Source: an uncultured Methanosarcinales archaeon
Lineage (GTDB): Archaea > Nanobdellota > Nanobdellia > Woesearchaeales > GW2011-AR9
Direction of reading: 5' to 3'
Assembly (NCBI GenBank): GCA_964527395.1
Contig: CAZGQD010000007.1
Span: 8,654-68,722, forward strand
DNA length: 60,069 nt
Shown: piece after piece, positions 4,749 to 53,975 of the stretch
Layout: every line of letters starts with the position of its first letter
Numbering within the stretch: the stretch's first letter is position 1
Notes under the pieces: generated by a model
The model's input: only the letters and a program-made list of their open reading frames with translations
Told to the model about the DNA's origin: nothing
Databases searched by the model: none
Program-made: the position numbers and the translations under genes

Positions 4749-5729
4749 ATGACCCTCACCACCATACTAGATGGAGTTATGCCTGTTCAGAGTGCAGCTA
4801 TTCCAAAAAATAGAATGATTTCTAAATCTGAGCGTTTGTTGGGAATTTTAAGAGGTGTTGTAAATGGTGATTTGAGGGAAAGAACACTATATTCTTTAGA
4901 TTTTACAGCAATTCCATCTTGGAAAGTCCATTTTTTATTACTCAATGCAGAAGGGTTTGATGAACACTTTGTTTCTAATGAAGCAAGAGAAGCTTTTTTT
5001 GATGAATACCATCCTGGACCAACAGCAGATAGACAGATGATTACTTCTAATTTAGGAGTTGACTTGCTTGATGGAAGATCAAATAATATTGGAAATGTTC
5101 TTACACAAGTTGAAGCTATTGCAAATGAATCTAATCGTGATGAAGACGTAATGCAAAGAGTTTCTGAGATTGTAAATGATTATTTTTCTATTGGAATCAT
5201 GGGATATTTGATGTTAAGAGAAGAAGAATGGGAAGGGCTAGGTAGAGATGATTCTGCCCTTGATTATGCCGTAAGAGCTGTAGAATACAATTCTTTGTTA
5301 GGGATGGCTGAAGGCTTCTTTAATGATTGTAAAGAATTAGGAGTTGAATTTGCACCTTTAACTAGAACAGATTGGAGATATTTGCAAGAAAGGTTTGAAA
5401 GTACTTCAATAAAAGATGTTCGAGAACTTGGATCAAAAGCAGTTGATCAAGCAATTGAAACTTATTTATCTTTGAATTGTATAAGAATGAAAAAAGGTTT
5501 TAAAGTAGATTATGAGGCTTTTGTTGGAGACATAGTGCTTGTTGAGAAATTTGCTTCAGATTTAGGACTTTCTATGATGCCTAAATTAGAATGGATAAAA
5601 AAAGATGTTTCATTGAAGATGAGAAGAGAAATTGGTAGTTCAGCTTATATGCAATTATATCAGCAAAAGAAAAGAGAGTTAGAGTTGCCAAAATTAGTTG
5701 CTGGCGTTAATTATCAGGAAGTTGCATGA
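4749..5729 (+). CDS. Hypothetical alpha-helical protein
   Basis: Long ORF (track start 4665 is TTG; ATG 4749 follows a TTTATAAA box). No motif recognised. Confidence 0.6.
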   Translation: MTLTTILDGVMPVQSAAIPKNRMISKSERLLGILRGVVNGDLRERTLYSLDFTAIPSWKVHFLLLNAEGFDEHFVSNEAREAFFDEYHPGPTADRQMITSNLGVDLLDGRSNNIGNVLTQVEAIANESNRDEDVMQRVSEIVNDYFSIGIMGYLMLREEEWEGLGRDDSALDYAVRAVEYNSLLGMAEGFFNDCKELGVEFAPLTRTDWRYLQERFESTSIKDVRELGSKAVDQAIETYLSLNCIRMKKGFKVDYEAFVGDIVLVEKFASDLGLSMMPKLEWIKKDVSLKMRREIGSSAYMQLYQQKKRELELPKLVAGVNYQEVA

Positions 5730-5785
5730 TTTTTGTTGAATTTTCATAAACAACATTTCAAATTGATTCTATAAATTAGTACTTG

Positions 5786-7417
5786 TTAAAATTCTAATGG
5801 GAATTGCATACATAATCTTTTTACTTGAGCTGCAATCTGCTGGATCTCTGGATCTAACCTTGTTGCTTCGTTGAATTCTTTGAACTTCAGATCTTTATAT
5901 TTTTCACTGATGTTCATTACTTGGTTGATCCATTGAGCAATACTTTGCATTTCTTGTTCTTTCATGCCCCTTGTAGTAATCCAAGGAGTTCCTAGTCTAA
6001 GGCCGCTTGGGTTCATAGGACTCCTTGTTTCTTGTGGAATAGTATTATAATTTGAAACAATGCCAGCATGGTCAAGAGCTCTTGCGAATTTTCTTCCTAT
6101 AACTGCTTTGTTTGTAAGGTCAATTAAGATTAAATGTTTGTCTGTTCCGCCAGAGACAATGTTAAAATTGAACTTTTGTAGTTCGTTGGCAAGGAATTGA
6201 GCGTTTTTTACTGTTTGAAATTGATCTTGTTTGAATTTATCTGTCATTGCTTCTTTTAAACCAGCTGCAATACCAGCAATACAATGATTGAATGGGCCAC
6301 CTAACAAGCCTGGAAGTACTGCTTTATTGATCTTCTTGATTAATTCTTCTTTGGCAAAGATTAGTGCTCCTCTCCCAGATCTTAATGTCTTATGAGTTGT
6401 TAGAGTTACAACGTCAGCAATACCTACTGGGCTTGGATTTGCTCCTGCACTGATTAACCCTGCTTCATGTGCGATGTCTGCTAGGTAGTAAGCTCCTACT
6501 TTGTTCGCGATTTGTCTCATTCTCTTGTAATTAATGTTTCTAGGATAAGCTGTACCGCCAGTAATGATTAGTTTTGGCTTTTGTAGAGTGGCAATTCTTT
6601 CAATTTCATCATAATCGAATTGTTTTGTTTCAGGATTGGTTTTGTATGAGACACTATTGAAAATCTTTGAGGAGATGTTAACTTTGTTTGATCCACCGTA
6701 GTAAACTGACTTTTTTGGATCTGCTGGTTTTTTAGGAGTGTAAGACCAACCGTGTGAAAGATGTCCTCCGTCTGGAAGATACATACCCATAATATAATCT
6801 CCTATTTGTAATAAGGCTAAGTACACTGCTAAGTTTGCTGTTGAGCCCGATAATGCTTGAACGTTTACAGACCAGTCTTCTGGTAGATTGAAAGCTTGTT
6901 TTGCTCTATTTATTGCTAATTGTTCAATTTGATCAATGTATTTGTTACCCTCATAGTATCTTCTTTTTACATTACCTTCAGAATATTTGTGAGCTAAGAT
7001 TGATCCTGTTGCTTGTCTTACAGCTGTTGAGAAGAAGTTTTCACTTGGGATCATAGAAAGTTTGTTTTGTTGTCTTTGTTTTTCTTGCTGGATAAGGTTG
7101 TATAGTTCAGGATCTTGAGTTTCTAGATTGTTTTTATTTGTGTTTTGGATACTTGAATTTGTTTGGATATTTATTGATTCTTGTTGTTTTTGATTTACTT
7201 GATTAAATTCGCTACTTTGGATTGCTGTGGCAGTTTGAGCCATTTGACTTACTACTTGTTCTTGATTAATTTGTGTTGGTTGAGAAACTTGTGCTTGCAT
7301 ATGTATCTGATTAGTTTGAAATTGTTGTGCTTGATTAGAATGTGGATTATGTTCTTGATTTAGCTGAGTAGCTGCATCTTTTTGAGCTTGTGCACTTTTG
7401 ATTGCTTCTTGGAACAT
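5786..7417 (-). CDS. glyA: Serine hydroxymethyltransferase with Gln-rich N-terminal extension
   Basis: IPSEN, KYSEG...RYYEG, VQALSGSTAN, GGHLSHG, ADIAH, TTHKTLR (PLP Lys), SGLRLGTP. Confidence 0.95.
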   Translation of the reverse strand: MFQEAIKSAQAQKDAATQLNQEHNPHSNQAQQFQTNQIHMQAQVSQPTQINQEQVVSQMAQTATAIQSSEFNQVNQKQQESINIQTNSSIQNTNKNNLETQDPELYNLIQQEKQRQQNKLSMIPSENFFSTAVRQATGSILAHKYSEGNVKRRYYEGNKYIDQIEQLAINRAKQAFNLPEDWSVNVQALSGSTANLAVYLALLQIGDYIMGMYLPDGGHLSHGWSYTPKKPADPKKSVYYGGSNKVNISSKIFNSVSYKTNPETKQFDYDEIERIATLQKPKLIITGGTAYPRNINYKRMRQIANKVGAYYLADIAHEAGLISAGANPSPVGIADVVTLTTHKTLRSGRGALIFAKEELIKKINKAVLPGLLGGPFNHCIAGIAAGLKEAMTDKFKQDQFQTVKNAQFLANELQKFNFNIVSGGTDKHLILIDLTNKAVIGRKFARALDHAGIVSNYNTIPQETRSPMNPSGLRLGTPWITTRGMKEQEMQSIAQWINQVMNISEKYKDLKFKEFNEATRLDPEIQQIAAQVKRLCMQFPLEF

Positions 7418-7441
7418 AATTTGCTATTTGCTCCTTTTTGT

Positions 7442-7864
7442 TTATAAGGATTGTTGGTGCTTAGAGGTTGCTTTTTGCTTGTTTAATTCTAAAAGATCCC
7501 ATTTATTACCATATAAGTCTTTGAAAACTGCAACAATACCATAATCTTCTATTCTTGGCTGCTCTAAGAAATTTATTTTGTTATTTTTTAATGTTTGATA
7601 ATCCTTTTGGAAATTGTTTGTTTGTAAAAATAAGAACACTCTGCCTCCAGTTTGATTGCCTATGAATTGTTTTTGTTCTTCATTTGCTGCTTTTGCTAAT
7701 AAAAGGCTTGTTGAATACTTATTTGGTGAGACTAAAACCCAACGTTTGCGTTCAGAGATCTTTGTGTCTTCAATTAGAGTGAAGCCAAGCTTTTTTGTGT
7801 AATAATCTATTGCTTCATCATAGTCTCTAACTAAAACTGTTACGTAGGCTATAGATTTTGACAT
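7442..7864 (-). CDS. VOC/glyoxalase family protein
   Basis: VTVLVRDYDEAIDYYTKKLGF, RWVLV, YGIVAVFKDLYGNKWDL. Confidence 0.9.
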   Translation of the reverse strand: MSKSIAYVTVLVRDYDEAIDYYTKKLGFTLIEDTKISERKRWVLVSPNKYSTSLLLAKAANEEQKQFIGNQTGGRVFLFLQTNNFQKDYQTLKNNKINFLEQPRIEDYGIVAVFKDLYGNKWDLLELNKQKATSKHQQSL

Positions 7865-7929
7865 TTGTATGAAATTTTGTTGATAGGATTTATAAAGCTG
7901 TCTTTATTATTATTATTTTTTCATTAGAT

Positions 7930-8628
7930 TTATCTTTTGCCTTCTTCAATAGAACTTTTTAGTAAACTTATTGGGACTTTATAATTATCATCTCTATGTT
8001 CTGGGTCGAATGTGGCTGAACCTGCTACAAAAAGGTTTGCACCTCCCCTAGAAGCTTGATATGCTGAAGACTGACTAGATTCACCATGTTTATAATGAAT
8101 ACCACCATCTACTTCTATATCTAAATCAGGAAATCTGTCTCTTAGATAACGTATATCTTCCAAAACTCCAGGAATGAATTTTTGGTTACCAAAACCTGGA
8201 TTTACTGTCATAAGTAATACATAATCAGCAACTTCTTCAAAGATATAATCTGCTATTGCTCTTGGGTTTGTGCCTGGATTTAATGCAACACCAGCATTAA
8301 CACCTTTTTTTTTAATTCCATTTAAAATGCCATCCAAATGCGAAGTTGTTTCACAATGTACGGAAAGATAATCAAGTCCAGTATCACAATAAGCACCAAC
8401 CCACTTATCTGGATTACTAATCATAAGATGGCCATCTAATGGGAGATCCGTAGCCTTTCTTATTTGTCTAATAAGGGGCAATCCGAAAGTTAAATTATCT
8501 ACAAAGTGACCGTCCATTACGTCCAAGTGAATCCCATCTGCGCCGCCTTGTTCAAGTCTTTCAATCTCAGAACGTAGATCTAAAAAATTTGCAGATAATA
8601 AAGATGGAAATAATTTTCTTTCAAGCAT
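7930..8628 (-). CDS. rpe: Ribulose-phosphate 3-epimerase (copy 1)
   Basis: PSLLSANF, HLDVMDGHFVDNLTFG, DGHLMI, LMTVNPGFG, IEVDGGI. Confidence 0.95.
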   Translation of the reverse strand: MLERKLFPSLLSANFLDLRSEIERLEQGGADGIHLDVMDGHFVDNLTFGLPLIRQIRKATDLPLDGHLMISNPDKWVGAYCDTGLDYLSVHCETTSHLDGILNGIKKKGVNAGVALNPGTNPRAIADYIFEEVADYVLLMTVNPGFGNQKFIPGVLEDIRYLRDRFPDLDIEVDGGIHYKHGESSQSSAYQASRGGANLFVAGSATFDPEHRDDNYKVPISLLKSSIEEGKR

Positions 8629-8650
8629 TTTTATACCTCTTGTGTTGTTG

Positions 8651-9748
8651 TTACCTGACTCTTCTTTGGGAGACTAGCTTCTTTAGGTCGCTTCCGCTGC
8701 CTTGTTGCCAATGACTCGGTCTGTTACCGTCACCTTCTAAATTGTCCCAAAAGTATTCATGGTTGTAGTAATACCAAACCTGTCTTACAGGGAACTGGTG
8801 GTATTTGAAATAAGTATAAGGAATGTCGCTTGCTCTTGTAACTGTGTCTGTTGATTCATCGTAGTAAGCACCTGCAGTTGCATCAATCACAAACCATTGG
8901 TCGTCATCTTCATCATAATATTCTACCCAAGCGTGGCCACCAACTGTACCATCAAAATCAACTAGGCCTAAAGTTACTCTTACGTTTTCAGAATCTATGC
9001 CTGAAGCAATCATTAAGGATGCCAAAGTGTTTGCTTGTTCACTACAGTCACTTGCATAATCACCAGGGCTTGGGTTAGTACTCATACTCGGAGTCTCTGT
9101 GAGGAACTCTTCAGGGTAGAACCAATACTCTACTTGGCCATTTAGAACTTCTTCTGAGACCCAAATCCAAGTTAGGGCTTCATCATAGATTGATTGTAAA
9201 TCGTTTGCTGTTTGTTCTTCTAAGTCTTGTACAGCATCGGTGTCAGGTTGAACATAAGATTGGTATGATGAAAGGATAGTAATATCACCAGGATCTTGCT
9301 GCTGTTCTTCTGCACGTTTGTTTTTTAAGTATTCTTTTAGATCTTCAATATCACTTACATCTGCGTTATCTAAGGATTTTTGGAACTTTCGGTCTCTGAT
9401 CTTTTGAGTTGTTTCGTCTTCTAGAGATTTTTCAATGTTTTCAAGTAATGTTTCTAGTTGGTTTTCATTTACAAACCTAAGCATACATTCGTTATCTCTT
9501 ACGCTTTTTATTTCTGGTACTGGTATTGTTATTTGATACACATCAAACTTTTCTGCGTCTACCTTTAGAACTGGCTCATAGTTACTTAAGTCCAATGCAT
9601 CACAAGAGTCTTGGACTTGTACATAGATTGTTTGTTCACCCTTAGTAGCTTTTTGGCTAACTGGATCTGGGCTGCATGCAGTAATCAATAGAATGATTAG
9701 TGTAAATGATAGAATTGTGAATAGTGGTTTTAGACGTTTTATGGCCAT
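8651..9748 (-). CDS. Lipoprotein with transglutaminase-like (papain-fold) domain
   Basis: LITAC lipobox; catalytic-type Cys (SDCSEQA), His (GHAWVE) and Asp (IDAT). Confidence 0.8.
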   Translation of the reverse strand: MAIKRLKPLFTILSFTLIILLITACSPDPVSQKATKGEQTIYVQVQDSCDALDLSNYEPVLKVDAEKFDVYQITIPVPEIKSVRDNECMLRFVNENQLETLLENIEKSLEDETTQKIRDRKFQKSLDNADVSDIEDLKEYLKNKRAEEQQQDPGDITILSSYQSYVQPDTDAVQDLEEQTANDLQSIYDEALTWIWVSEEVLNGQVEYWFYPEEFLTETPSMSTNPSPGDYASDCSEQANTLASLMIASGIDSENVRVTLGLVDFDGTVGGHAWVEYYDEDDDQWFVIDATAGAYYDESTDTVTRASDIPYTYFKYHQFPVRQVWYYYNHEYFWDNLEGDGNRPSHWQQGSGSDLKKLVSQRRVR

Positions 9749-9875
9749 GTTTCTTTGTTTGTTGGTTTTTGCTTAAAAAACTTTTGTACTTTGAGTTATT
9801 TTGTGTTTGTTTTGTGATAGTTATTTTAGAGTTGCTAAATCATTTTAACTGAAAATTGAGCAAAAATATATTTAT

Positions 9876-10436
9876 ATGGGTGAAAAAGTGCAAAAAACTA
9901 GAATTTCTGCGGAACAGATACAATTTGAAAGGCTTAAGGTTGACCACGATGTTTCTAATTTTGAGTCTTATGAGCAAGAATTAGTTGATTTTCTGCAAGA
10001 AGATGCTTTAGATAACCAAAAAAAGCAAATTTCGGTGACCTACTTGTGTTTTTTGAGAACAGATGAATTGATTGGTTATGTAACTTTATCAGATGATAGA
10101 ATTAAGTTAGAAGGAGGGCTTAGACAAAGATTTTTGGGAAAAGGAATCCCTTATAGAGCATTGCCTGCTTTGAAAATTGGTCGTTTATGTGTTGATAATA
10201 AGTTTATTAGAAGAGGAGTTGGGACTTTGATCATGGCCTTTGCAACAAATGTGGCCGAAAACATATTTTCAGACTATTCAGGCTGTAGGTTTGTTGTTTT
10301 GGATGCAAAAAGAAATGAAGAAAATGATGTTGTTAGGTTTTACCAGAGAATTGGGTTCAAAATTATTAGAGAAAAGAAAAAAGGCAATAGTCCAATGTAT
10401 TTAGACTTAGTTAATAACCTTAAATTTAGTATTTAG
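9876..10436 (+). CDS. GNAT acetyltransferase, TacT/AtaT-like toxin type (copy 1)
   Basis: LPALKIGRLCVD...RRGVG acetyl-CoA motif, GCRFVVLDAK, FYQRIGF. Confidence 0.85.
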   Translation: MGEKVQKTRISAEQIQFERLKVDHDVSNFESYEQELVDFLQEDALDNQKKQISVTYLCFLRTDELIGYVTLSDDRIKLEGGLRQRFLGKGIPYRALPALKIGRLCVDNKFIRRGVGTLIMAFATNVAENIFSDYSGCRFVVLDAKRNEENDVVRFYQRIGFKIIREKKKGNSPMYLDLVNNLKFSI

Positions 10437-10559
10437 GGCTTTTTTAATGAAAGCAATACGTCTTGGATCAGGATTAGTCTCCTCTTTTCTCATTTTTTCT
10501 ATGAATTTGTATGCTTCTTTGCCCCTTAAGGTAGGAGTTGCTTCAATTGGTTTTGCCAT
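10407..10559 (-). CDS. 50-aa putative antitoxin/partner peptide (copy 1), absent from the ORF track
   Basis: Manual translation MAKPIEATPTLRGKEAYKFIEKMRKEETNPDPRRIAFIKKALNTKFKVIN. 36/50 identical to copy 2, with a conserved upstream promoter-like sequence. Confidence 0.8.
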   Translation of the reverse strand: MAKPIEATPTLRGKEAYKFIEKMRKEETNPDPRRIAFIKKALNTKFKVIN

Positions 10560-10610
10560 AGTTTGTTTATAGGAAGTGTTTTTTAATAAAAGTTTCTATT
10601 GAGTAACTTT

Positions 10611-10658
10611 CTCTTGAAGATAGTAAGTTCAAACTCACCTTTGTCTTGCGTTGATTCT
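10611..10658 (-). pseudogene. Duplicated 3' fragment of folA (ESTQDKGEFELTIFK)
   Basis: 30-bp block 10629-10658 identical to 11509-11538 inside folA; the adjacent differences are synonymous. Confidence 0.9.
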
Positions 10659-10711
10659 CTGCTTTTATTGCTTTAAAACACACAATTGAGTATCTAAATT
10701 CTTTTAATGAA

Positions 10712-11281
10712 GTGACTTACAAGACTATTTTGATGGTCGAAGAAAGAACAAAAGTGAAGATCACTGTTGATCAAATACAAATTGAAGTGATCAATGAAGA
10801 TTATGATGTAACTAGGTTTAGGTCTTATGAAAATGATTTAGCTAAGTTCTTAGTTGAAGATGCACTTGATAATCAAAAACAGTTCCTATCTTTGACATTT
10901 TTGTGGTTTTTTGAAGGCAGATTGGTGTCTTATATTACCATATTAAATGATAAAATCAATCTTAAAGGAGATTTGAAAGATTTCTTTAAGCAAAAAGGCA
11001 TCCATTATGGCTCTCTTCCAGCTTTGAAAATTGGTCGTTTGTGTGTAGATGACAGATTTGTTAGAAGAGGACTTGGTAAATTAATGATTCAGTCAGCCAT
11101 TTCTATTGCTAATAAGCTAAATACTAGTTGGTCTGGGTGTAGATTCATTACGTTAGATGCAAAAAGAAACGATAATCCTAGTAAAGATCCACTCAATTTC
11201 TATAAAAAACAAGGATTTAAGGTTTTGAAAGAGAAGAATGGAAGCACTACACCAATGTTTCTTGACTTGAAACTTATTTAG
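10712..11281 (+). CDS. GNAT acetyltransferase, TacT/AtaT-like toxin type (copy 2; ATG start may be 10733)
   Basis: LPALKIGRLCVDDRFVRRGLG, GCRFITLDAK, FYKKQGF. Paralog of 9876..10436. Confidence 0.85.
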   Translation: MTYKTILMVEERTKVKITVDQIQIEVINEDYDVTRFRSYENDLAKFLVEDALDNQKQFLSLTFLWFFEGRLVSYITILNDKINLKGDLKDFFKQKGIHYGSLPALKIGRLCVDDRFVRRGLGKLMIQSAISIANKLNTSWSGCRFITLDAKRNDNPSKDPLNFYKKQGFKVLKEKNGSTTPMFLDLKLI

Positions 11282-11426
11282 GAAAATTGAACTTAATGTT
11301 TAAAGCTTCTCTGATAAATGCAATACGTCTTGGATCAGGGTTAGTTTCTTCTTTAATCATGTTTTCTATGAAACGTTTAGCATCTTCTCCTTCTAATGTA
11401 GGTGTTGCTTCAATTGGTTTTGCCAT
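11274..11426 (-). CDS. 50-aa putative antitoxin/partner peptide (copy 2), absent from the ORF track
   Basis: Manual translation MAKPIEATPTLEGEDAKRFIENMIKEETNPDPRRIAFIREALNIKFNFPK. Confidence 0.8.
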   Translation of the reverse strand: MAKPIEATPTLEGEDAKRFIENMIKEETNPDPRRIAFIREALNIKFNFPK

Positions 11427-11462
11427 AATTTGTTTATATGGTGTGTTTTTTAATAAATATTT

Positions 11463-12011
11463 CTATTGATTTGTTATTATTGTGTCTTTCTTTTTGAAAA
11501 TAGTCAGCTCAAACTCACCTTTGTCTTGCGTTGATTCTTCTTTCCAAGCGTTCCAATTAATTTCTGGGAACTTAGTGTTACCTTCATATTCATGCTTTAT
11601 AAAGGAGATGTGCATTGTGTCTGCGTATTGTTCTAAAAGTTTGTATATTTGAGCTCCACCAATGATGAAGATGTCTTTTTCGTGGGTTTTGGCTAGTTGG
11701 ATGGCTTCTTCTGGTGAGTTTGCTATCTCTAATTTCGAGCATAGCTCTCTTGACTTGGCTCTTTCATCGCCAAGTATTGCTTCATTTGTGTCTGCTTGAT
11801 TCCAGCTTCTGGAGAGAATGATATTTACTCTGTTTGGGAGAGGTCTGAACTTTTTTGGGATTGATTCGTAGGTTTTTCTACCCATGATAACTACACTATT
11901 GTTTGTTAAAAGTTTGAAGTTCTTTAAGTCTGCTGGGATGTTCCAAGGAAGTTTGTTGTCTTTACCAATGATTTTGTGGGTTTTAGTCATAGCAGCTATA
12001 ATTGAGATCAT
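11463..12011 (-). CDS. folA: Dihydrofolate reductase with internal insertion
   Basis: IIAAM...IIGKDNKLPW..PADL..FK, VIMGRKTYESI, RPLPNRVNIILSR, IFIIGGAQIY, GNTKFP. Confidence 0.95.
   Translation of the reverse strand: MISIIAAMTKTHKIIGKDNKLPWNIPADLKNFKLLTNNSVVIMGRKTYESIPKKFRPLPNRVNIILSRSWNQADTNEAILGDERAKSRELCSKLEIANSPEEAIQLAKTHEKDIFIIGGAQIYKLLEQYADTMHISFIKHEYEGNTKFPEINWNAWKEESTQDKGEFELTIFKKKDTIITNQ
11731..11801. repeat. Palindromic element copy lying in frame inside folA
   Basis: TTCGAGCATAGCTCTCT..ACTTGGC-loop-GCCAAGTAT matches the intergenic element at 53102-53143; TCGAGCA pairs with TGCTTGA at 11793-11799. Confidence 0.7.
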
Positions 12012-12079
12012 GTGTTTGAGGTTGTTTGGGTTGTTTATAAAGGTGCTTGTGGAAAAGAGGGAAATTAAAAAGATAGAAT

Positions 12080-12835
12080 TTAGTAATCTGCAAATGGATT
12101 TGGCAATGAATTAACTCTTTCTTTTTCCCTCCATCTTTGGTAAGCATTTCTTAATAAGCTAATCCCTTCATCACCTTTAAAGATTAATTCAAAATCAATA
12201 GGAAATGTTGAATTAGGGTCCCTATCTCTGAAAACATAATTGTATGTCCCTAACTCAACGTACTCCTTTTCAAAGGCAGTTTTCAATTCATCTTTGGTTA
12301 AAACGAATCTAACTAATCTCTTATAATTAGGATCATTCACAAATTCATCAGTAGTATTAAAATAACTTGTATGAACAGAATCATGCCAAAAAAGATCATG
12401 ACTTGAACCTAAATCTGAACTGCTTTCACCCCATTTTATTACTTCTTCTTCAGACAATACTCTCGTTAAAATTATTTCATCTTTAAAGTTTTCTAATAAG
12501 TACATATTTATTGGTTTTGGAGTTAAGTTTTCAATTGTTCCATTGATTTTATAGATAGAATATTGAGATTTTTTATTAGAAGTGTGAGTTCCCAAAGGTA
12601 TAAGATGGCCGTTATACTCAAGGAAACTTCTATTTCTTCTTAAAGATCTTCCAAATCTCTTTACAGTAATATCGACATGGTGGGTTCTTCTACCATGCTG
12701 AAGATCCAATAGTCTATTTCTACTGTCCCTAATTGTATCAGTTACCCAATATCTTACTATTTCTTGTGATTCAGAATTAGATACTCCAAATAAATGCCAA
12801 TTGTTATTTATTATGTCAAAAAGACTTAAACCCAT
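12080..12835 (-). CDS. Hypothetical protein between thyA and folA
   Basis: 251-aa ATG ORF. No family motif recognised. Confidence 0.6.
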   Translation of the reverse strand: MGLSLFDIINNNWHLFGVSNSESQEIVRYWVTDTIRDSRNRLLDLQHGRRTHHVDITVKRFGRSLRRNRSFLEYNGHLIPLGTHTSNKKSQYSIYKINGTIENLTPKPINMYLLENFKDEIILTRVLSEEEVIKWGESSSDLGSSHDLFWHDSVHTSYFNTTDEFVNDPNYKRLVRFVLTKDELKTAFEKEYVELGTYNYVFRDRDPNSTFPIDFELIFKGDEGISLLRNAYQRWREKERVNSLPNPFADY

Positions 12836-12888
12836 TTAACCCGTAAAAAGAGACAGTTTTTAAAAATATATCTTCAATTTGCTTTAAA

Positions 12889-13788
12889 TCAAACAGAAAT
12901 TGGAGCTTTAATAGGTGGATGAGGGTCGTAGTTCTCTACTTTGATGTCTTCGAAAGTAATGTCAAACAGATTTGTCTTGTCTTTGTTGATTGTTAGATTT
13001 GGAAGTGGTCTTGGCTGTCTTTGCAGCTGTTCTCTTGTTTGGTCTAAATGGTTCAAATATAGATGCACATCGCCGCCAGTCCAAACAAAAGTGCCTGGTT
13101 CTAAGCCGCAGTGTCTTGCAACCATAATAGTAAGAAGTGCGTAAGAAGCAATATTGAAAGGTACGCCTAAGAAGACATCGCAACTTCTTTGGTATAATTG
13201 GCAAGATAGTTTTTTGTTTGTTACATTGAATTGGAATAGGCAATGGCAAGGTGGTAAGAGCATGTTTTGGATCTGAGTTGGGTTCCAAGCACAAATAATC
13301 ATTCTTCTACTATGTGGGCTTTGTTTGATTAGTTCCAAAGTGTTTTTTAATTGGTCAACACCGTTAAAATCACGCCACTGTTTACCGTAAACAGGACCAA
13401 CATCGCCCCATTTCTTTGCGAACTCTTCGTTTGTCTTGATTTGTTCTAGATACTCTTTCATTCTTGCTTTCCAAGCTTCACTGTATTTAGGATAGAGTTC
13501 TTCCAAATTATTTTGTTTTAAGAAATTTTGATAAGGCCATTCGTTCCAAATGTTTACTTTGTTTTCCACTAAGTATTTGATGTTGGTGTCGCCCTTTATA
13601 AACCACAACAGTTCGTGTGTTATTGCTCTCATGTAAGTCTTTTTGGTAGTTAGAAGTGGAAAACCTTTGCTAAGATCAAAGCGCATCTGGTAACCAAAAG
13701 TGCCTAAAGTGCCAGTACCCGTTCTGTCTTCTTTTTTCTCGCCGTTTTCTAGGACGTGTTTAAGTAAATCTAAGTATTGTTGAACCAT
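12889..13788 (-). CDS. thyA: Thymidylate synthase, bacterial type
   Basis: [64 protein letters not shown]. Confidence 0.97.
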
Positions 13789-13914
13789 TTTTGCAGCTTC
13801 TTTAGCTTGTTTTTGAGTTTAGTATTTAAATGGATTATGGTGCTGTGGGATAGAAGTGGAAAGAGTAATATTTTTAAGAGGTTAATTTATATATTGTTTA
13901 AGGTTCGCCTAATA

Positions 13915-15216
13915 ATGGTATTTGATGCTAGTAAGTATTTGTATTCCCTTCAACACTTTGGTGTGAAGTTAGGGCTTTCGCGTATGGAGAAACTAATGTC
14001 AGTGCTTGGTGATCCTCATGCTTCTTTTGCTACAGTGCATGTGGCAGGAACAAATGGGAAAGGGTCTGTTTGTGCAATGCTGGCTTCTGTGCTTAAAGCT
14101 GCTGGGTTTAAAGTTGGGCTTTATACTAGTCCACATTTAGTTAAGTTTAATGAAAGAATTAGTGTTGTTGGTGAAGCAATTAGTGAGGAGGATTTGTCTT
14201 CTATAACTTTGTCAATTAAGGAACGTTTTAATGACAGTAAAATTACTTTTTTTGAGTTTACAACAGCTGTGGCGTTTGAGTATTTTGCTCGAGAAGGTGT
14301 TGATATTGCGATAATTGAAGTTGGACTTGGGGGTCGGCTAGATGCAACTAATGTGATTAAACCAATTGTGTCTGTGATTACTAATATTGACCTTGACCAT
14401 ACAAAAGTTCTTGGTGAAACACGTTCTGAAATTGCTTTTGAGAAAGGAGGGATCATAAAAAGTGGAGTGCCGGTTGTTTGTGGTGAACGTAACACTGAGA
14501 TAATATCTTTGTTTGAGAAGATTTGCTCTGAGAGAAGGAGTGAAATATTTTCTGTTGATTATAATTATTCTATTTTGTCGTCTACAATTCATGAGCAAAA
14601 GTTTAGTTATGGTGGTTTGGAGTTTAAGCTTTCTTTGCTTGGTGAACATCAAATAGGTAATGCCTGTATAGTGTTAAAAGTACTTGAGTTACTTAGATCT
14701 AAGGGTTTTAATGTTTCTAAAGAAGCTATTGATGTTGGGTTTGCTGCTGTAAAATGGCCTGGGCGTTTACAAGTATTGTCTGAAAAACCGTTAGTAATGC
14801 TTGATGGCGCACATAATCCTGCTGGAATGGCTAAGTTGGAGGAATTTTTGAGTGAGAAATTGTTTGCAGAGACTCCTTTTGATAAGTTAGATGAAGAAAA
14901 GGCTAAAAATCCTGCTTTTGATAGGAAAAATGTATGTGTAATTGGAATATCTACTGGTAAAGATGTTGAGTGGATCTTTGAGAAGATTTCTGAATACTTT
15001 CAATCTGTGATAATTACTGAAGCTTCACATAGAGCTATTGCTAAAGAAGAGTTGGCCGAGGTTGCTGATTACTATTTTACTGGAATTGAGATTTCTGAGA
15101 TTGGATCTGCTTTAGATTTGGCTAAAGAGAAAGTTGGAGCTGATGGGTTTGTGCTGGTTACTGGATCATTGTATGTAATTGGTGATGTTTTAGCTGGGAT
15201 TGAAGGTAAAATGTAG
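13915..15216 (+). CDS. folC: Dihydrofolate synthase/folylpolyglutamate synthase
   Basis: VHVAGTNGKGS, YTSPHL..FNERI, FFEFTT, EVGLGGRLDATN, KWPGR, LDGAHNP, VTGSLYVIG. ATG 13915 preferred over TTG 13777. Confidence 0.95.
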   Translation: MVFDASKYLYSLQHFGVKLGLSRMEKLMSVLGDPHASFATVHVAGTNGKGSVCAMLASVLKAAGFKVGLYTSPHLVKFNERISVVGEAISEEDLSSITLSIKERFNDSKITFFEFTTAVAFEYFAREGVDIAIIEVGLGGRLDATNVIKPIVSVITNIDLDHTKVLGETRSEIAFEKGGIIKSGVPVVCGERNTEIISLFEKICSERRSEIFSVDYNYSILSSTIHEQKFSYGGLEFKLSLLGEHQIGNACIVLKVLELLRSKGFNVSKEAIDVGFAAVKWPGRLQVLSEKPLVMLDGAHNPAGMAKLEEFLSEKLFAETPFDKLDEEKAKNPAFDRKNVCVIGISTGKDVEWIFEKISEYFQSVIITEASHRAIAKEELAEVADYYFTGIEISEIGSALDLAKEKVGADGFVLVTGSLYVIGDVLAGIEGKM

Positions 15217-15267
15217 TTTAGTTTTGAAAAGATCGATTAATTTGAGGCGTATTTGTGTTTCTTCTTG

Positions 15268-15283
15268 GAGTTCGCATAATGTT
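15268..15283 (+). repeat. GAGTTCGCATAATGTT motif copy 4
   Basis: Exact match, 51 nt after the folC stop, at the left edge of the lipoprotein/PP2C islet. Confidence 0.85.
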
Positions 15284-15384
15284 TGTGGTTGTGTCTGTTT
15301 CATATATGATTAACCTACAGATAGTAGTGTTTTTCGTGATTTTAACTGGTTATATTTATAAAAAAGAGCCATATTTTGAGCTTA

Positions 15385-16206
15385 ATGAGAGATTCATCAA
15401 GATTGGTTGGATTAGCTGGGTTTTTAGGAGCAGGATTAACTAGTTCTGGCTGTGGTTCAGATTGGATTATAACTAGTGCGCCGCTTTTTGCAGATAAGAC
15501 TATTGTAGAAGAATGTGCATCACTTAGTAGAATTTCTGATTACGAAGATATTTGTGCTGTGTTCGCAGATGGAGAGCAAGTAGCAGAAGATAATTGTAAT
15601 TATGGGTTTTTAGCTTCGCAAAATAGAGTTGACCAGTTCATTGATAGAGAGTTAGCTGAAGGTGAATATGAAGTTTTCCCTATTATAAGTGAAACTGAAA
15701 TTTTGACAGGCACAGGGTATTCTTCAGTAGAAGGAAGTCTAGTCAGTTTAGCAGAAAATCAAAGTGTAGATTTGGTTAAGAAAAATGTAGTAATTGGACA
15801 GCATTATGAGGAAACTTTTTTGACTTGTTCTTATGCTTGGCTAGAAGGAGAAAATGTATGTGATGAAGGCCTATATTCAAGTTCTACAAAAATAGGAATG
15901 GGTGTTGAATATAATGGAGAAGAACTTCATGAAATTGTTGATGTTTTAAGTGGAATTGGGATTTCATTGAAAAGTAATGTATTATATGATGTAGAATGGG
16001 ATTGTTTTAGAATTTATGCTGGTGCTAACTTAGAAGTAGAAAATGATTCAGGAGAAACTACTTTTTCCAATACGAGAATAGGAGAATTTGATTCTTTAGA
16101 TGCTGCTGAAACATTAACAGTTGATTTTGTTGATAGTGTTCATGATTATCATGAATTATTTGATAGCTACGTTATTAGTGGTAGTGATACTGGAAATTAT
16201 GAATAA
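15385..16206 (+). CDS. Acidic Cys-rich lipoprotein, paralog 1
   Basis: Gly-rich signal ending SSGC; CASL, GYS-x5-LVSL, CSY-x4-G-x-N-x-C, Y-x-VE-x2-C shared with paralogs. Confidence 0.8.
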   Translation: MRDSSRLVGLAGFLGAGLTSSGCGSDWIITSAPLFADKTIVEECASLSRISDYEDICAVFADGEQVAEDNCNYGFLASQNRVDQFIDRELAEGEYEVFPIISETEILTGTGYSSVEGSLVSLAENQSVDLVKKNVVIGQHYEETFLTCSYAWLEGENVCDEGLYSSSTKIGMGVEYNGEELHEIVDVLSGIGISLKSNVLYDVEWDCFRIYAGANLEVENDSGETTFSNTRIGEFDSLDAAETLTVDFVDSVHDYHELFDSYVISGSDTGNYE

Positions 16207-16312
16207 AGTGGACAATATAGTAGTGGACTTGCTGCAGGAGAATTGAACAGAGTGTCTGTTTTTAACTTATATGAATGAAAATAACAATTGAATTTAGTGA
16301 GGAATTATAAAA

Positions 16313-17074
16313 ATGACAAATAGATTAGGATTAGTTGGATTATTAGGAGCAGGGTTAAGTAGTGGGTGTGTTCCGGAATATCGTGCAGTTCCACAAATGG
16401 GATCTGTTATGGTTACAGATGAAACTATTACTGATTGTGCTTCATTATTTTTGCTAGATGATGCTGGACTTTGTGACACTTTCATTGATGATAGTACTGC
16501 AAAAGGACTGTGTCTTAATAACTATGCTGCAGCTCAAGATGAAGCATTAGGATTATTAGAATTGGCAGATACTGCTGAAGGTAGCTTAGTAGGGAGTTTA
16601 GAAGGTGAAGGTAGTTTTTCAAGTTCTCTTGGATATTCGGCTGATCAAGAGGCATTAGTTAGTTTAGATCAAGCAGAAACTGTTGATACAATTGAAAGGT
16701 TTTTTACTGTTTTTCAGAATTCTTCTGATAGTCCGTTCTTTTCTTGTAGTTACATTAAAGCAGCAGGAGGAAATGCATGTGAAGATGCAGTGTATTTAGT
16801 CTCTGCATTTGCTGGGAATGAATTTGATTCAGAATTACCATTTGGTGAACAAGGAAATGTTAGGATTGATCTAACAAGACCTTTAAATTATGTTGTTGAA
16901 GAAGGATGTTATTCTGTTTTTGATGAAGCTATGCTAAATGTGAGCCCTTCTGTTGGAGAAGCTTTTATTGGGGCTACTGAAGGGAACTTAGACAATGCTT
17001 ATCTCTTAGATGCTGAAGCAAGAACAATTTCTGCTGTTGATTTTATCTTTGCAGCAGATGTGACTTATGATTAG
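16313..17074 (+). CDS. Acidic Cys-rich lipoprotein, paralog 2
   Basis: MTNRLGLVGLLGAGLSSGC signal and the same conserved motifs; GTGAGG ribosome site. Confidence 0.8.
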   Translation: MTNRLGLVGLLGAGLSSGCVPEYRAVPQMGSVMVTDETITDCASLFLLDDAGLCDTFIDDSTAKGLCLNNYAAAQDEALGLLELADTAEGSLVGSLEGEGSFSSSLGYSADQEALVSLDQAETVDTIERFFTVFQNSSDSPFFSCSYIKAAGGNACEDAVYLVSAFAGNEFDSELPFGEQGNVRIDLTRPLNYVVEEGCYSVFDEAMLNVSPSVGEAFIGATEGNLDNAYLLDAEARTISAVDFIFAADVTYD

Positions 17075-17138
17075 AATTGATTTTATTTTTTTATTTAATT
17101 AGCACATTGAAAAAAATTGAAAAAAGTGAGTGAATGAA

Positions 17139-17927
17139 ATGGGAAATAGATTTGGATTAAATGGAGTATTAAGTTTAGGAGTATTAAGCCTTGGAATTGG
17201 TAGTGGCTGTACTCCGCCATCTTGGTATCCTTTCCCTAAAAGTGATGATTACAATTTGAGTGAAGATGTTTATGAAGGTTGTGCTTCATTATATTCACAA
17301 GAAGATATTTCTGATTTATGTGAAGCTTTTTCTTTTGGAGATGAAAATTTGAATGCTTTATGTGTTGAAAATTATGAAAATGTTCAGGAGATTGGTTTAG
17401 AGTCTTTTGAGGGAATTATTGATGAAGTGCATGACTTAGCAGCAGGAGATGTTGAGAATACAGAAAGATTAACTACCACAACAGGATATTCTCTAGAAAG
17501 GGATGCTTTTATTAGCTTAGATGAAGGAGTTTCAGTTGGACTTAAAGAAAAGGCATTTGTTTTAAATGACAATGAATTTTTTGGTGGAACATATTTTGAT
17601 TGTAGATATATTTTGCTTGATGGTGACAATGTTTGTGATAACCCAAAATATTCTAGTTCTGTCCTGTTTAGCCATAACCTTCATGGAGATCAAAGTCTTG
17701 AAGGTTTTTTAAGTGGAAAAATTGAATTTGTTCGTAATATCCAATATGTTGTTGAAGAAGAATGTTTTGATGTTTTTTATGGAGCCGAATTGAATATTAA
17801 GAGAACAGGGATGGAGAGTTTTTCTGGCAATGCAAGTGTAGGTTATGAGAGCCTTTTATATGCAGAAACAGATTTAATAGATGCAGTTGATACAGCAACT
17901 GATGTGATCATGAATTATCAGTATTAA
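17139..17927 (+). CDS. Acidic Cys-rich lipoprotein, paralog 3
   Basis: MGNRFGLNGVLSLGVLSLGIGSGC signal and the same conserved motifs. Confidence 0.8.
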   Translation: MGNRFGLNGVLSLGVLSLGIGSGCTPPSWYPFPKSDDYNLSEDVYEGCASLYSQEDISDLCEAFSFGDENLNALCVENYENVQEIGLESFEGIIDEVHDLAAGDVENTERLTTTTGYSLERDAFISLDEGVSVGLKEKAFVLNDNEFFGGTYFDCRYILLDGDNVCDNPKYSSSVLFSHNLHGDQSLEGFLSGKIEFVRNIQYVVEEECFDVFYGAELNIKRTGMESFSGNASVGYESLLYAETDLIDAVDTATDVIMNYQY

Positions 17928-17957
17928 CTTATAAATAAACTACTTTTCTATTGAATT

Positions 17958-40022: not shown

Positions 40023-41594
40023 TTATCTTTTATTTTTTTTAAATGGTTTAGAACTGTTTCTTGGTTTACTGTTTGATTTGGATCTGCTGTTGCCTTTACC
40101 ATAAGTTTTCTTTTTGTCAGATCGATTTCCTCTTTTGAAAGGTTTTGAATTAGTTCTTGATTTGCTGTTTGATCTGGATCTTCTTTTATTATTAGAACTT
40201 TTATTCTCATAATCTTTAAGAGTTTTTTTCTGTCTTCTAAAGCCATTGTCTTTGAATGGCTTGCCTCTTGACTTCTCTTTAATACCAGTCATAGATACTC
40301 TTTCTGACCTGTTATCTGATCTGTTATCTCTTTTGAAAGGTTTGCTTTTGGAATTTGACCTAGACTTAGTATCTGACTTATTATTGAACTTGTTATCAGA
40401 TCTATCATCTCTTTTGAATGGTTTGCCTCTTGATTTCTCTTTGCTGCTGTAGTTAGATCTGCTATTGGTTTTATTGTCTCTAAAATGTTTAGATCTGTTG
40501 TCATTTGATCTATCTTTACTAAAGGTCTTTGAAGGTCTTTGTTTTGATCCTGACCTTGAATTTTGTCTTGAATTTGTCTTTGATTTAATCATTTTTTTAG
40601 TAGATCCAGTAGTTTCTTTAAATTTATTGGATTCTTTAGATCCTTTAGATTCTGTATTATTTTCTTTCTTGTTTTGCTTTTCTTTACTCACTCTTTTACC
40701 TTTAGCAATCTCTTTGTCAACTTTGATAGCTTTTTTACCCCTAGGGAAAACTACCCGTACTGGCTTTTTTCCATCACTAACTTTAGGGCTTCTCTTGAAA
40801 CCTCGCTCTTTTGTAGATTTAGTTCTGTAATGCTTTGAGTCTTTCTTTTCTCTTCTGAAAGTTTTTTTCTTTTTTTCATGCTCATTGATTTGTGAAAGTG
40901 ATATTTTTGATGTTTCTTGGAAGATCTTTTCCTTCTCGTACTCTTTTAAATGTCGCCATTTACCTGCTTTTAGGCTTCTTAATTCTAATCTACCAACTTT
41001 GATCCTTTCTAAGCTAGTTACCATGAAACCTATCTTTCGCATCATACGTCTAATGATTCTGTTCTTTCCCTCATGGATTGTGATTCTAATTACACTGTGT
41101 TTTACTTTGCTTACTTTTGCTGGTGAAGTTAGACCATCATCTAATTTTATACCAGTTTCAATCTTTCTTATTTGTTCTTTACTGATTTTACCATTTAGTT
41201 TAACTAAGTAAGTTTTGTCTATTTCTTTACTTGGATGAGCAATACTGTTAGCAAAATCACCATCATTTGTTAAAAGAAGAAGTCCGCTGGTGTTTAGATC
41301 TAGTCTACCTATTGGAAAGATTCTTTCAGAAATATTGATGCAATCCATAACAGTAGAATATTTTTGGTCCCTAAGTGCTGTAACGCAATTCATTGGTTTA
41401 TTAAGCATAATATAGATTTTTTTTTCTTGTTTGATGATTTTACCATCTACTTCGATCTTGTCTTTAATACCCGCCTTATCGCCAATATTGATAGTTTTGT
41501 TATTGACTTTGACCTTACCTTTCATGATAAGTTCTTCAGCTCTTCTTCTTGAGCAAAAGCCTGAGTTTGAAAGGATTTTCTGAACACGTTCCAT
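40023..41594 (-). CDS. RsuA/RluB-type pseudouridine synthase with long basic repetitive tail
   Basis: S4 domain (RVQKILSNSGFCSRRRAEELI), LNKP, PIGRLDLNTSGLLLLTNDG, IHEGKNRIIRRM. Confidence 0.9.
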   Translation of the reverse strand: MERVQKILSNSGFCSRRRAEELIMKGKVKVNNKTINIGDKAGIKDKIEVDGKIIKQEKKIYIMLNKPMNCVTALRDQKYSTVMDCINISERIFPIGRLDLNTSGLLLLTNDGDFANSIAHPSKEIDKTYLVKLNGKISKEQIRKIETGIKLDDGLTSPAKVSKVKHSVIRITIHEGKNRIIRRMMRKIGFMVTSLERIKVGRLELRSLKAGKWRHLKEYEKEKIFQETSKISLSQINEHEKKKKTFRREKKDSKHYRTKSTKERGFKRSPKVSDGKKPVRVVFPRGKKAIKVDKEIAKGKRVSKEKQNKKENNTESKGSKESNKFKETTGSTKKMIKSKTNSRQNSRSGSKQRPSKTFSKDRSNDNRSKHFRDNKTNSRSNYSSKEKSRGKPFKRDDRSDNKFNNKSDTKSRSNSKSKPFKRDNRSDNRSERVSMTGIKEKSRGKPFKDNGFRRQKKTLKDYENKSSNNKRRSRSNSKSRTNSKPFKRGNRSDKKKTYGKGNSRSKSNSKPRNSSKPFKKNKR

Positions 41595-51494: not shown

Positions 51495-53012
51495 TTATTG
51501 GTCTGTGAGTACATAACTATTGTTTATGCTTAGAATTAGCTTCTGTGGGCTTTGGTTTGAGTCTAGATCCTTGTTTTCTAGGTCTTGTCTTGCTTTATTC
51601 TTGTTCTTTCCTATTGTTAGTAGAATTGCTGTGTCTGAGTTTGTGATGAGGGACTTTGTTGCAGTCATTCTTAGTTTTGGTGGCTTTGGTGAGTCTTTTA
51701 CTATGCTAAAATATTTACCCTTTGCCTGATTGACTTTGTTTGGGAACAATGATGCAATATGGCCGTCCTCGCCAGAACTTAAAATAGCAATATCAATCTT
51801 GCCGCCTAGTTTCTTAAGTTTGTTTGAGTAGCTATTGATTCCGTAGTTTGCTTTAGTTTTGTCTGGAACAAAAGGATGGATGTTCTCTTCTGGGAGTTTT
51901 CCTTCTTTGATTAGTGGTTTTAAGAGGATGTCGTATGCTTGTTTGAAGTTGCTGTTTTTGTTTGTGATTGGAAGAAGTCTTTCATCTAACATGAAAATAT
52001 GGACGTCTTTCCAGGCAATTTTGGCTTTCTTTAGCCGTTTAAGTAAAGGGATTACTGTATTTCCGCCAACAAAGCCCAAAATTACCTTGGTTTGGCCTAA
52101 ATCGGGAGAAATGAGCTTCTTTTGGCTTAAATAGGTAATTTTGAGCTCCTTTTTTGATTTAAAGGTCATTTTTGCCTGCTTTTGACTTCTAGCGGTCAAA
52201 ATTGGCTGCTTTTTGGAAAAGGAGGCAGTTTTGGTCTTCTTTTGGTCTAAATCAGCAATTTTGGCCTTCTTTATCGATTTAATTCTGCTCTCAATTAACT
52301 TGCTTGCCTTCTCATATAAAGTGCTTTTCTTTGCTTTGATGGTCCTTCTGTTTGTTTCCTTTTCTAGAATGTAATTGGCAGCATCTAAGAAATCTGTTGC
52401 TACATGGATCTTTGATTTGATGCTGCTTTTGCCTCTTGATTCTCTTGATTTATTGAATTTGTTTAGTTTTTGAAGTTCTTCACCTTCGTTTTTGAAAGGA
52501 ATTAAGATGCCAGTACCTTTGGCGTTGATAGCTGTTTGGACATCTGCTAGTCTATCACCAATAACATAGATATTGACATCTTTTCTCTTAAGATGGGTTT
52601 GTTTTAGAGCATCGTAGACCATGCCTGGATGAGGTTTTCTGCAATGTGAATCTTTTACAAGGCTTTTGATGTATTTTCTGTCTTTGTGGGTCTTTACGTA
52701 ATGTTTGTTTGTGTGAGGACAAAAGATGTAGCCTTTTATTTTTGCGCCTTTGCTATTTAGTCTGTTTGTGACTTCCTCGCATACTTTGTCTGCCCGCTGT
52801 GGAGTTAGAAGTTTGAAGTCTTTAATAGCAACACCAGTTTGATTACTAATCATATAGATATGGGCGTTTGGGAGAGTGTTTAAGAGTTTTAAACCTTTAA
52901 TGACGTTTGGTAAGAACTTTAGTTTCTTTTTCCAACTGTTAGTTTTACCTAGATAGTATTTGTCATCATAAATGAGAGTTCCATCTCTATCAATGCAGAT
53001 TAGCGTTTCCAT
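51495..53012 (-). CDS. pgl: Fusion of GmhB/HisB-like HAD phosphatase and 6-phosphogluconolactonase
   Basis: N-terminal IDRDGTL, ISNQTG, CPH, CRKP.PGM, IGDR..DV; C-terminal VGGNT, FMLDERL, GEDGHIASLFP, PKPPKLRMT. Confidence 0.85.
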   Translation of the reverse strand: METLICIDRDGTLIYDDKYYLGKTNSWKKKLKFLPNVIKGLKLLNTLPNAHIYMISNQTGVAIKDFKLLTPQRADKVCEEVTNRLNSKGAKIKGYIFCPHTNKHYVKTHKDRKYIKSLVKDSHCRKPHPGMVYDALKQTHLKRKDVNIYVIGDRLADVQTAINAKGTGILIPFKNEGEELQKLNKFNKSRESRGKSSIKSKIHVATDFLDAANYILEKETNRRTIKAKKSTLYEKASKLIESRIKSIKKAKIADLDQKKTKTASFSKKQPILTARSQKQAKMTFKSKKELKITYLSQKKLISPDLGQTKVILGFVGGNTVIPLLKRLKKAKIAWKDVHIFMLDERLLPITNKNSNFKQAYDILLKPLIKEGKLPEENIHPFVPDKTKANYGINSYSNKLKKLGGKIDIAILSSGEDGHIASLFPNKVNQAKGKYFSIVKDSPKPPKLRMTATKSLITNSDTAILLTIGKNKNKARQDLENKDLDSNQSPQKLILSINNSYVLTDQ

Positions 53013-53076
53013 CTTTTAGTTAGGGTTTAGTGATTCTTTTGTTACTTGAAAAGCTAGATTTGTTTTCTTTTATGTA

Positions 53077-53250
53077 AGAAGAAGGCACAATCAGACTTTA
53101 GTTCGAGCAGAGCTCTCTCAACTTGACTATTCGTCAAGTATCGCAGGTGTGTCCACTTCGCTGTGATTTTGCTCCTGTTGGTCACAAAATGCTCGTTGCT
53201 AAAGTCTTGTTTTGAATAACATTGCCAGTGAGGGGACTGTGCCTTCTTCT
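53077..53250. repeat. Multi-branch intergenic palindromic element
   Basis: Outer 12-bp IR AGAAGAAGGCAC/GTGCCTTCTTCT; inner AGACTTTAG/CTAAAGTCT, CGAGCA/TGCTCG, GAGC-AGA-GCTC, ACTTGAC/GTCAAGT. Confidence 0.8.
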
Positions 53251-53315
53251 CTTGAGTAAGATGCTGTGGATGATGAGTTGTTGGATGTTCTGTTGGTTGA
53301 TTATGTGTAAGTTAG

Positions 53316-53975
53316 TTAGGTGAATGTGCTTAGGAGTTTTTTTGGGTTTTTGGATTTGGTTAGGGCAGAAGCAATTAGGACTCCTTTGCAGCCTAAGGCT
53401 TTTGCTTCTAGGTAGTCGCTGTTGTCGTGGATGCCAGCGCCGCAAATGGGGATTGTTTTTGTTTTGCTTAGGAGCTTTGTGAATTCTTTTAGCTGCTTTG
53501 TGTTGTGTTTGGTGATTGAAGTTTTAGTACCAATGATTTTTGGATCTTCGAATGCCATATATGTCGGTCTTAATTTTTTGTATTTTTTTACTTCACTGAT
53601 GCTTTTTACGCAGAGGATGCTTTTTAGCTTATGTTTCTTGCAGTCTTTTATAGCCTGTTTTATTTCTTCTTCTTTTAATTGATGTTCAGAATGGTTAATT
53701 ATTGTTCCTTTTGCGCCAGCAGCTTTGATTGCTTCTGCAATTATGTAGCCTGTTGCTCTATTAGTTCTATTGCTTTGATCAATGTGTTGAGCGAAAATTG
53801 TGATGTTGCTCTTCTTTTTGAGTTTGCTTTTTATGTAGTATATGTCAGTAGCAGATACACAGACTATTATTTTTTTAGGTTTGGGAGTCTTTTTGTTTGG
53901 TGTTGATTCTAGCTTCTTTATGAAATTTAGGGCTTTTGTGCCATGAAAGTAGTTTTTTAAGTTGATGATTATCAT
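53316..53975 (-). CDS. tpiA: Triosephosphate isomerase, archaeal type
   Basis: INLKNY, FAQHID, TIINHSEH, AFEDP..IGT, CGAGI, GVLIASA. Confidence 0.9.
   Translation of the reverse strand: MIIINLKNYFHGTKALNFIKKLESTPNKKTPKPKKIIVCVSATDIYYIKSKLKKKSNITIFAQHIDQSNRTNRATGYIIAEAIKAAGAKGTIINHSEHQLKEEEIKQAIKDCKKHKLKSILCVKSISEVKKYKKLRPTYMAFEDPKIIGTKTSITKHNTKQLKEFTKLLSKTKTIPICGAGIHDNSDYLEAKALGCKGVLIASALTKSKNPKKLLSTFT

Follow-up and report, generated by a model that had tools for sequence, protein, structure and literature searches.

The dihydrofolate reductase (DHFR) gene of this archaeon probably carries a hairpin repeat module that was inserted as DNA into a tolerant loop of the enzyme and that acts like a Rickettsia palindromic element (RPE) or an intragenic MITE. 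The module exists in multiple copies, is optionally nested in a larger element, occupies sites that are empty in a sister lineage and leaves the DHFR reading frame intact. All positions refer to the window, the complete 60,069-nt stretch of DNA that was analyzed, and the features are collected in Table 1.

Table 1. Positions of the features discussed in the text.
Feature	Position	Strand	Details
DHFR gene	11463..12011	-	intact ORF hosting the insert, 182 aa; Pfam DHFR_1 E=3e-45
Putative repeat-derived segment (module copy) inside DHFR	11725..11780	+	weaker likeness to the intergenic copy up to ~11797
hpA of DHFR module	11737-11747		GAGC-ATA-GCTC
hpB of DHFR module	11753-11775		ACTTGGC-loop-GCCAAGT; arms 11753-11759 / 11769-11775
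91-nt MITE	49427-49517		14-bp inverted ends ATACTCATCCGTAA / TTACGGACCAGTAT; two CCGTAA hairpins; TA/ATAT flanks
HAD/6-phosphogluconolactonase gene	51495..53012	-
Spacer between TIM and HAD/6-phosphogluconolactonase genes	53013..53315	.	303 nt; holds the 176-nt element
Composite hairpin element F1	53076..53251	+	176 nt; closing stem AAGAAGAAGGCACAATC / GACTGTGCCTTCTTCT
Intergenic module	53103..53142	+	40 nt, TCGAGCAGAGCTCTCTCAACTTGACTATTCGTCAAGTATC; nested in the 176-nt element
Intergenic counterpart of hpB	53121-53127 / 53133-53139		ACTTGAC/GTCAAGT
Triosephosphate isomerase (TIM) gene	53316..53975	-

Dihydrofolate reductase has an enlarged loop

The DHFR and TIM encoded in the window have their closest database relatives, at ~50% identity, in entries labeled Woesearchaeota, Nanoarchaeota or Pacearchaeota, which places the window in a marine, Woesearchaeota/Nanoarchaeota-like DPANN archaeon. 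In this DHFR, 30 aa separate LSR (of NIILSR) from SPEEA, against mostly 12–16 in homologs (18 aligned), close to the difference given in the initial annotation. An ortholog alignment, proposed there as a check on presence or absence, marks the insert as lineage-specific. The closest ortholog (P0002, 165 aa, from Tara contig L001) is 75% identical in amino acids and its loop after NIILSR is a net 14 aa, or 42 nt, shorter; the insert is missing from this protein and from every other DHFR ortholog aligned. Exact placement of the indel is impossible against a sister DHFR of 75% identity, which we count against the insertion reading. Two further assemblies of the same species (L002 and L003) contain an identical insert, and it is unchanged among independent assemblies from several samples.

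The module copy lies in frame, contains no stop codon and leaves the reading frame intact. Read on the minus strand, it corresponds to about A78–I96 (AILGDERAKSRELCSKLEI). The AlphaFold model of the enzyme has a mean pLDDT of 86.4 with a confident core, while residues ~71–93 have low pLDDT and are predicted to form two short helices between strands 62–66 and 94–97. The same loop is gapped by HMMER against Bacillus anthracis DHFR, the best solved relative. The insert is thereby modeled in the surface loop that links the NIILS and LEIA strands, off the conserved core. The insert-bearing form of the enzyme is assumed to be expressed.

Two further features of this locus were noted. At DHFR residue 44 (window 11882), the ENA assemblies L002 and L003 have Cys in place of the nearly invariant Gly of VIMGRKT (G to T), either a polymorphism or an assembly error. 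Next to DHFR, window 10407–11538 holds two tandem pairs, each combining a 50-aa ORF with a GNAT acetyltransferase, with ~79% identity over 219 nt. These look like duplicated toxin–antitoxin-type modules; a Pfam search with the 50-aa proteins gave zero matches.

The insert matches a hairpin module in intergenic DNA

The DHFR stretch 11734–11780 can be aligned to 53102–53143 in the spacer between the TIM and HAD/6-phosphogluconolactonase genes. TTCGAGCATAGCTCTCT (11734–11750) and TTCGAGCAGAGCTCTCT (53102–53118) are identical at 16 of 17 positions, the 7-bp hairpins of the two copies differ by one compensatory change (G-C to A-T), and beyond this hairpin both copies share GTAT-Y-GC. A looser alignment stretches the likeness to about 11797 and 53158. 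In fold prediction both hairpins of the DHFR copy form (z = −3.5). Four copies of the mini-hairpin RAGCAKAGCTY are present where 0.3 would be expected, one in DHFR, one in the intergenic copy and two in an island at 32.2 kb.

Compared with the rest of the window, the 51-nt insert scored 21.0. Dinucleotide shuffles of the insert had a mean of 12.7 (sd 1.15) and a maximum of 17, so that none of 400 reached 21. Among random 51-nt segments of the window, 7 of 400 did so, all seven lying in stretches that a self-comparison of the window identifies as repeated. Significance against shuffled sequence, on which the initial annotation had staked the match, is therefore established, and both the 16/17 identity and the compensatory hairpin change that it described were observed again. 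Its closing stem, TCGAGCA/TGCT(T/C)G in both copies, did not hold up. The intergenic CGAGCA finds its partner in TGCTCG at 53191–53196, ~50 nt beyond the hairpin and with two more hairpins enclosed; in the DHFR copy AGCA/TGCT alone can pair, and the predicted fold lacks this stem.

The intergenic copy is an optional part of a composite element

The intergenic sibling had been taken for a stand-alone copy. It is instead one module, 40 nt long, within a composite element of 176 nt. The element has a G+C content of about 45–48%, compared with 33% for the window, and fold z-scores of −4.5 on the plus strand and −6.7 on the minus strand. The 303-nt spacer that holds the element is identical in five assemblies of this species.

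A third, diverged copy of the 176-nt element is found past the end of the window region on the same JGI contig (L030 ~951–1092, minus strand), flanked by a 2-hydroxyacid dehydrogenase gene and an HhH-GPD glycosylase gene. This copy lacks exactly 53103–53142 (TCGAGCAGAGCTCTCTCAACTTGACTATTCGTCAAGTATC), the part in common with DHFR. At the same junction in another contig, a loose end, '...CATCAGACTTAGT', meets 53143 directly. Since both the L030 copy and this junction are without the module, the family has two tiers, a 176-nt composite and a 40-nt module that the composite can carry or lack and that is found in other places as well, DHFR among them.

The two full copies (intergenic and L030) allow covariation to be followed. 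Nine pairs are altered on both sides, six of them in the 16-pair closing stem and three in a distal hairpin, and every cell is paired, compared with 37–52% when the partners are slid. The closing stem measures 16–17 bp and differs in sequence between copies; the motifs AAATGCTCGTT and ATTGCCAGTGAGGRGAC are kept. Terminal inverted repeats are absent from the 40-nt module, and the one definable module junction, between the intergenic and L030 copies, shows no target-site duplication. The absence of both is counted against the insertion reading. Searches of the window and L030 with nhmmer and blastn, using single copies and two-copy profiles, yielded nothing beyond these copies.

The HhH-GPD glycosylase gene is called from a start codon (TTG at L030 1021, or 1024 in the gene table of the record) that lies inside the third copy, and the ~30 predicted N-terminal residues of the glycosylase (L030 1021–1113) may be repeat-derived. 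We consider a later Met (...ILMQQ...) the likelier start.

Further copies track the sequencing depth of the genome

Logan contigs of four marine metagenome runs were matched to both loci with an 80% likeness threshold. Depth in the flanks of the intergenic locus is ~51 in run X2 and 32 in X3 (SRR8062323), and the summed depth over 53086–53250 climbs to as much as about 915 and 497, respectively. This excess stems from many other contigs of 2–14 kb that match in part, with 2–18 differences, and whose depths (50–56 in X2, 28–32 in X3) equal that of this genome. A 51-nt unitig covering 53091–53141 has a depth of 161 versus ~51 in the flanks.

The DHFR insert behaves similarly. Summed depth rises over it from 53 to 334, and other same-depth contigs match 11725–11778 at 80–97% identity. 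One 58-nt unitig (depth 167) differs from the insert at 1 of 32 positions and another contig has four differences over 11728–11773. Loose ends at 11725, 11728 and 11730 on one side and at 11760, 11773 and 11778 on the other indicate at least three flanking contexts for the module. Across window 1–20000, depth clearly exceeds the baseline of ~53 in a single bin, that of DHFR (69). Depths of 58–60 in two thymidylate synthase bins come from low-depth contigs of 80–90% identity, taken to be the same gene in other organisms.

Copy number is about 6 for the module and about 18 for the core of the 176-nt element, in contigs that track the depth of the genome over four samples; these figures are estimates, as the other copies are seen only through unitig depth, the coordinates of pieces and loose ends of 30 nt. 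'Same genome' here means matching depth, except for the L030 copy, which is physically linked. Together, the same-depth contigs in four runs and the linked copy bear out the proposal of a palindromic family with several copies.

Pattern scans added no copies. Fourteen matches in metagenome contigs had neither hairpin nor flank likeness, and the scan missed the known JGI contig and is thus powerless for this organism; three bacterial matches in genome contigs, a collection without the source genome, were due to chance. Three scans of viral contigs (module, core motifs and 91-nt MITE) gave no matches.

Both sites are empty in a sister lineage

In a sister lineage (L026–L028, TIM 74% identical), a single base separates the TIM stop codon from the ATG of the HAD/6-phosphogluconolactonase gene. 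The spacer is therefore 1 nt, compared with 303 nt in the window. One of these contigs, L028, and the contig with the insert-less DHFR, L001, come from the same assembly (ERZ909154). Because the sister DHFR is without the insert and the sister spacer measures 1 nt, both sites occupied in the window are empty in the closest relative. From these empty sites we infer that the module/176-nt family is mobile. No presence/absence polymorphism of this family was seen within the population.

The window contains other small repeats

A 91-nt MITE elsewhere in the window has a summed depth of ~95-fold in X2. Most of its copies are at least 95% identical, and half of the matched contigs are at least 99% identical. 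The site is filled in the window and in L009 and empty in L007, L008 and L010; the empty-site form is also found in a same-depth contig in X1–X3, which skips 91 nt. The element looks recently active. Its filled and empty alleles indicate that the genome holds an active small element, which we count in favor of the insertion reading. Two other length differences among these contigs were rejected as repeat modules, a 31-nt 'insert' in L010, which is a run of N, and a 49-nt gap in L008, which is a stretch without a hairpin.

A depth survey of the whole window located other intergenic repeat islands at 29.8, 32.1–32.4, 34.2, 35.1, 49.4 and 59.9 kb. The islands at 32035–32451, 34144–34391 and 29810–29898 are built of small hairpin modules, and other same-depth contigs skip units of 36–128 nt within them. 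Another GC-rich structured repeat, ~150 nt long, occupies 59866–60012. It has a closing stem of 16 bp (GGCACTGTCCTAAATC / GATTTAGGACAGCGCC) and a depth of up to ~17-fold, and in another contig it adjoins a piece of the 176-nt element in opposite orientation. The run at 35100–35160 is a simple TTTG/TTGTTTTT repeat that matches thousands of contigs (bin depth ~6000); it was rejected as an element because it is low-complexity sequence.

Window 52117–52282 encodes a lysine-rich linker (aa ~244–299 of the product of gene 51495..53012) that leads from the HAD phosphatase domain to the 6-phosphogluconolactonase domain and has ~3-fold depth. Its DNA forms a long imperfect palindrome on the plus strand only (z = −3.6 versus −0.8), and similar sequence abuts repeat elements in other contigs. 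The linker may be a second repeat-derived coding piece. Two other proteins are longer than their domains need: an RluA-type pseudouridine synthase of 523 aa (40023..41594), with internal DNA repeats at 40037–40442, and a serine hydroxymethyltransferase (SHMT) ORF (5786..7417) with ~97 residues before the Pfam domain.

Peptide relatives, mobilizing enzymes and RNA families

When the 35-aa insert region was searched by phmmer against 1.84 billion representative proteins, no other protein carrying the peptide emerged; the sensitivity of this search is limited by the short query and by a library of representatives at 50% identity. P0241 and P0242 were rejected as relatives, being unrelated tandem-repeat proteins that score by summed weak matches. 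The proposal that a palindrome writes peptide into enzymes of this archaeon is accordingly borne out for DHFR only. DHFR is the one coding insertion demonstrated, and this is counted against the insertion reading.

The mobilizing enzyme that had been suggested, a HUH-type RAYT/TnpA or another, did not turn up. No HUH, RAYT, TnpB or other transposase was found in ~70 kb of the genome, covered as window ORFs of at least 120 aa and the gene tables of L002, L007 and L030; we count this, too, against insertion. Rfam 15 scans at gathering and E-value thresholds gave no matches in the window and nothing above chance level in 52950–53400, and a tRNA scan found none. GTGGATGATGAGTTGTTGGA (window 53266–53287) resembles the C-box end of archaeal C/D sRNA models (sR30, 15.9 bits against a threshold of 38), and no D box was seen.

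Discussion

We favor the reading in which the DHFR segment is a copy of a two-hairpin module, ~44–56 nt long, from a dispersed, non-coding, multi-copy repeat system. The DHFR gene would have acquired the module at the DNA level, once the sister lineage had split off. One possible route is mobilization in trans by an enzyme encoded elsewhere in the genome; another is recombination or template switching between hairpin repeats. It may then have been retained because it was stop-free by chance, kept the frame and sat in a tolerant surface loop. The hairpins and their compensatory changes would, on this account, mirror a constraint on nucleic-acid structure and not on the peptide. How the module moves we infer from its ends: the lack of inverted ends and of a target duplication points away from a cut-and-paste DDE route and towards structure-specific single-strand transposition or recombination/template switching between hairpins.

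A more far-reaching version of this account, doubtful enough that we offer it as speculation, would make the two-hairpin module of 40–50 nt a mobile unit in its own right, smaller than typical described MITEs, and would have the remodeling of loops and linkers be routine in reduced DPANN genomes. Its insertion into other repeats and coding DNA would involve neither inverted ends nor target duplication, and the unit would be recognized by its structure, through template switching or a single-strand enzyme of the HUH type. The surface loops of enzymes and the linkers between their domains would then be reshaped routinely, with the hairpin-rich linker of the HAD/6-phosphogluconolactonase fusion as a second case.

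The 176-nt element and the modules could alternatively be paralogous functional RNAs or cis-acting RNA structures rather than selfish DNA, for example mRNA-stabilizing or processing hairpins co-transcribed with the flanking genes, with the DHFR fragment gained once by ectopic recombination or templated repair. This is unlikely but deserves weight, given a G+C content above that of the window and single-stranded motifs that are kept while the stems covary. The consensus fold is also better on the gene-sense strand (−33 versus −23.5 kcal/mol), where two G-U pairs would become A-C mismatches on the opposite strand, and all three copies have the same orientation relative to the transcription of neighboring genes, although three of three is not significant. 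Covariation of the two arms, however, is equally expected for subfamilies with terminal inverted repeats. No Rfam family matched, the TIM/HAD junction of the sister lineage does without the element, and partial copies with mosaic presence and absence of modules are typical of repeats and not of RNA genes.

Removal of the segment at the RNA level, as an archaeal bulge-helix-bulge intron or a bypassed stretch, would restore a normal DHFR and would suit a hairpin-rich segment whose net length is a multiple of three. We regard it as very improbable, as the predicted fold has no bulge-helix-bulge joining both junctions, the segment is open in frame and forms a surface excursion in the AlphaFold model, and this module is also known from intergenic DNA and from within another repeat. 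The lowest probability of all goes to the idea that a variable DHFR loop and an intergenic hairpin unrelated to it are alike by chance, or through an assembly artifact. By our own estimate a 16/17 match alone is expected several times per 60 kb, and the length of this DHFR loop varies in other lineages, but the score was reached by none of the 400 shuffles, more copies exist at 80–97% identity and independent assemblies from several samples share an identical insert. The shuffle test and the further copies already refute this explanation.

The inserted-repeat reading invites comparison with known systems. RPEs lie in frame in housekeeping enzymes, measure ~100–150 bp and include dozens of coding copies (Ogata et al. 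2000, 2002, summarized in PMC10969869). Like them, the archaeal family is a dispersed palindromic repeat with one copy in frame at a tolerated surface site of a housekeeping enzyme, with its remaining copies intergenic and no transposase associated. It differs from RPEs in its archaeal host, in the shorter inserted piece (~44–56 nt), in having one coding insertion against dozens, in the absence of a detected peptide common to several proteins and in a module that also nests in a larger repeat. The likeness that we describe is one of features; full RPE membership, in which many genes share the encoded peptide, is not shown.

Among prokaryotic MITEs, the family has parallels in being small, non-coding, multi-copy and mostly intergenic, and the closing stem of the 176-nt element resembles a long terminal inverted repeat. 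Unlike MITEs, the 40-nt module has neither terminal inverted repeats nor a target duplication, no parent insertion sequence was identified for element or module, and the 176-nt closing stem varies by compensatory changes, where conservation would be expected of an end bound by a transposase. The REP/BIME, REPIN-RAYT, BOX, ERIC and Correia families are described mainly in bacteria. They share with the archaeal repeats short hairpin units in variable intergenic mosaics, stems kept by compensatory change and insertion without target duplication. In contrast to REP/REPIN sequences, the module has no GTAG or CGTC head by eye, and no RAYT accompanies it in ~70 kb.

The repeat family and its host group, a DPANN archaeon, are new, and the phenomenon is real and of a known kind. 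DPANN genomes, including a Woesearchaeota genome, are reported to be among the most MITE-dense in archaea (PMC11602168), so that MITE-rich DPANN genomes are already on record; what is added is an archaeal case with empty-site support and a single coding insertion. Such repeats affect metagenome assembly, since contigs break at them, and gene calling, as one copy may lengthen a predicted N-terminus. The intergenic DNA of this genome is a mosaic of small hairpin modules that are gained and lost between copies and strains. If the favored reading is correct, the DHFR gene would provide an example, from a reduced DPANN archaeon, of an essential enzyme incorporating selfish hairpin DNA, a process documented mainly for Rickettsia, and would bear on the origin of new protein loop and linker sequence.
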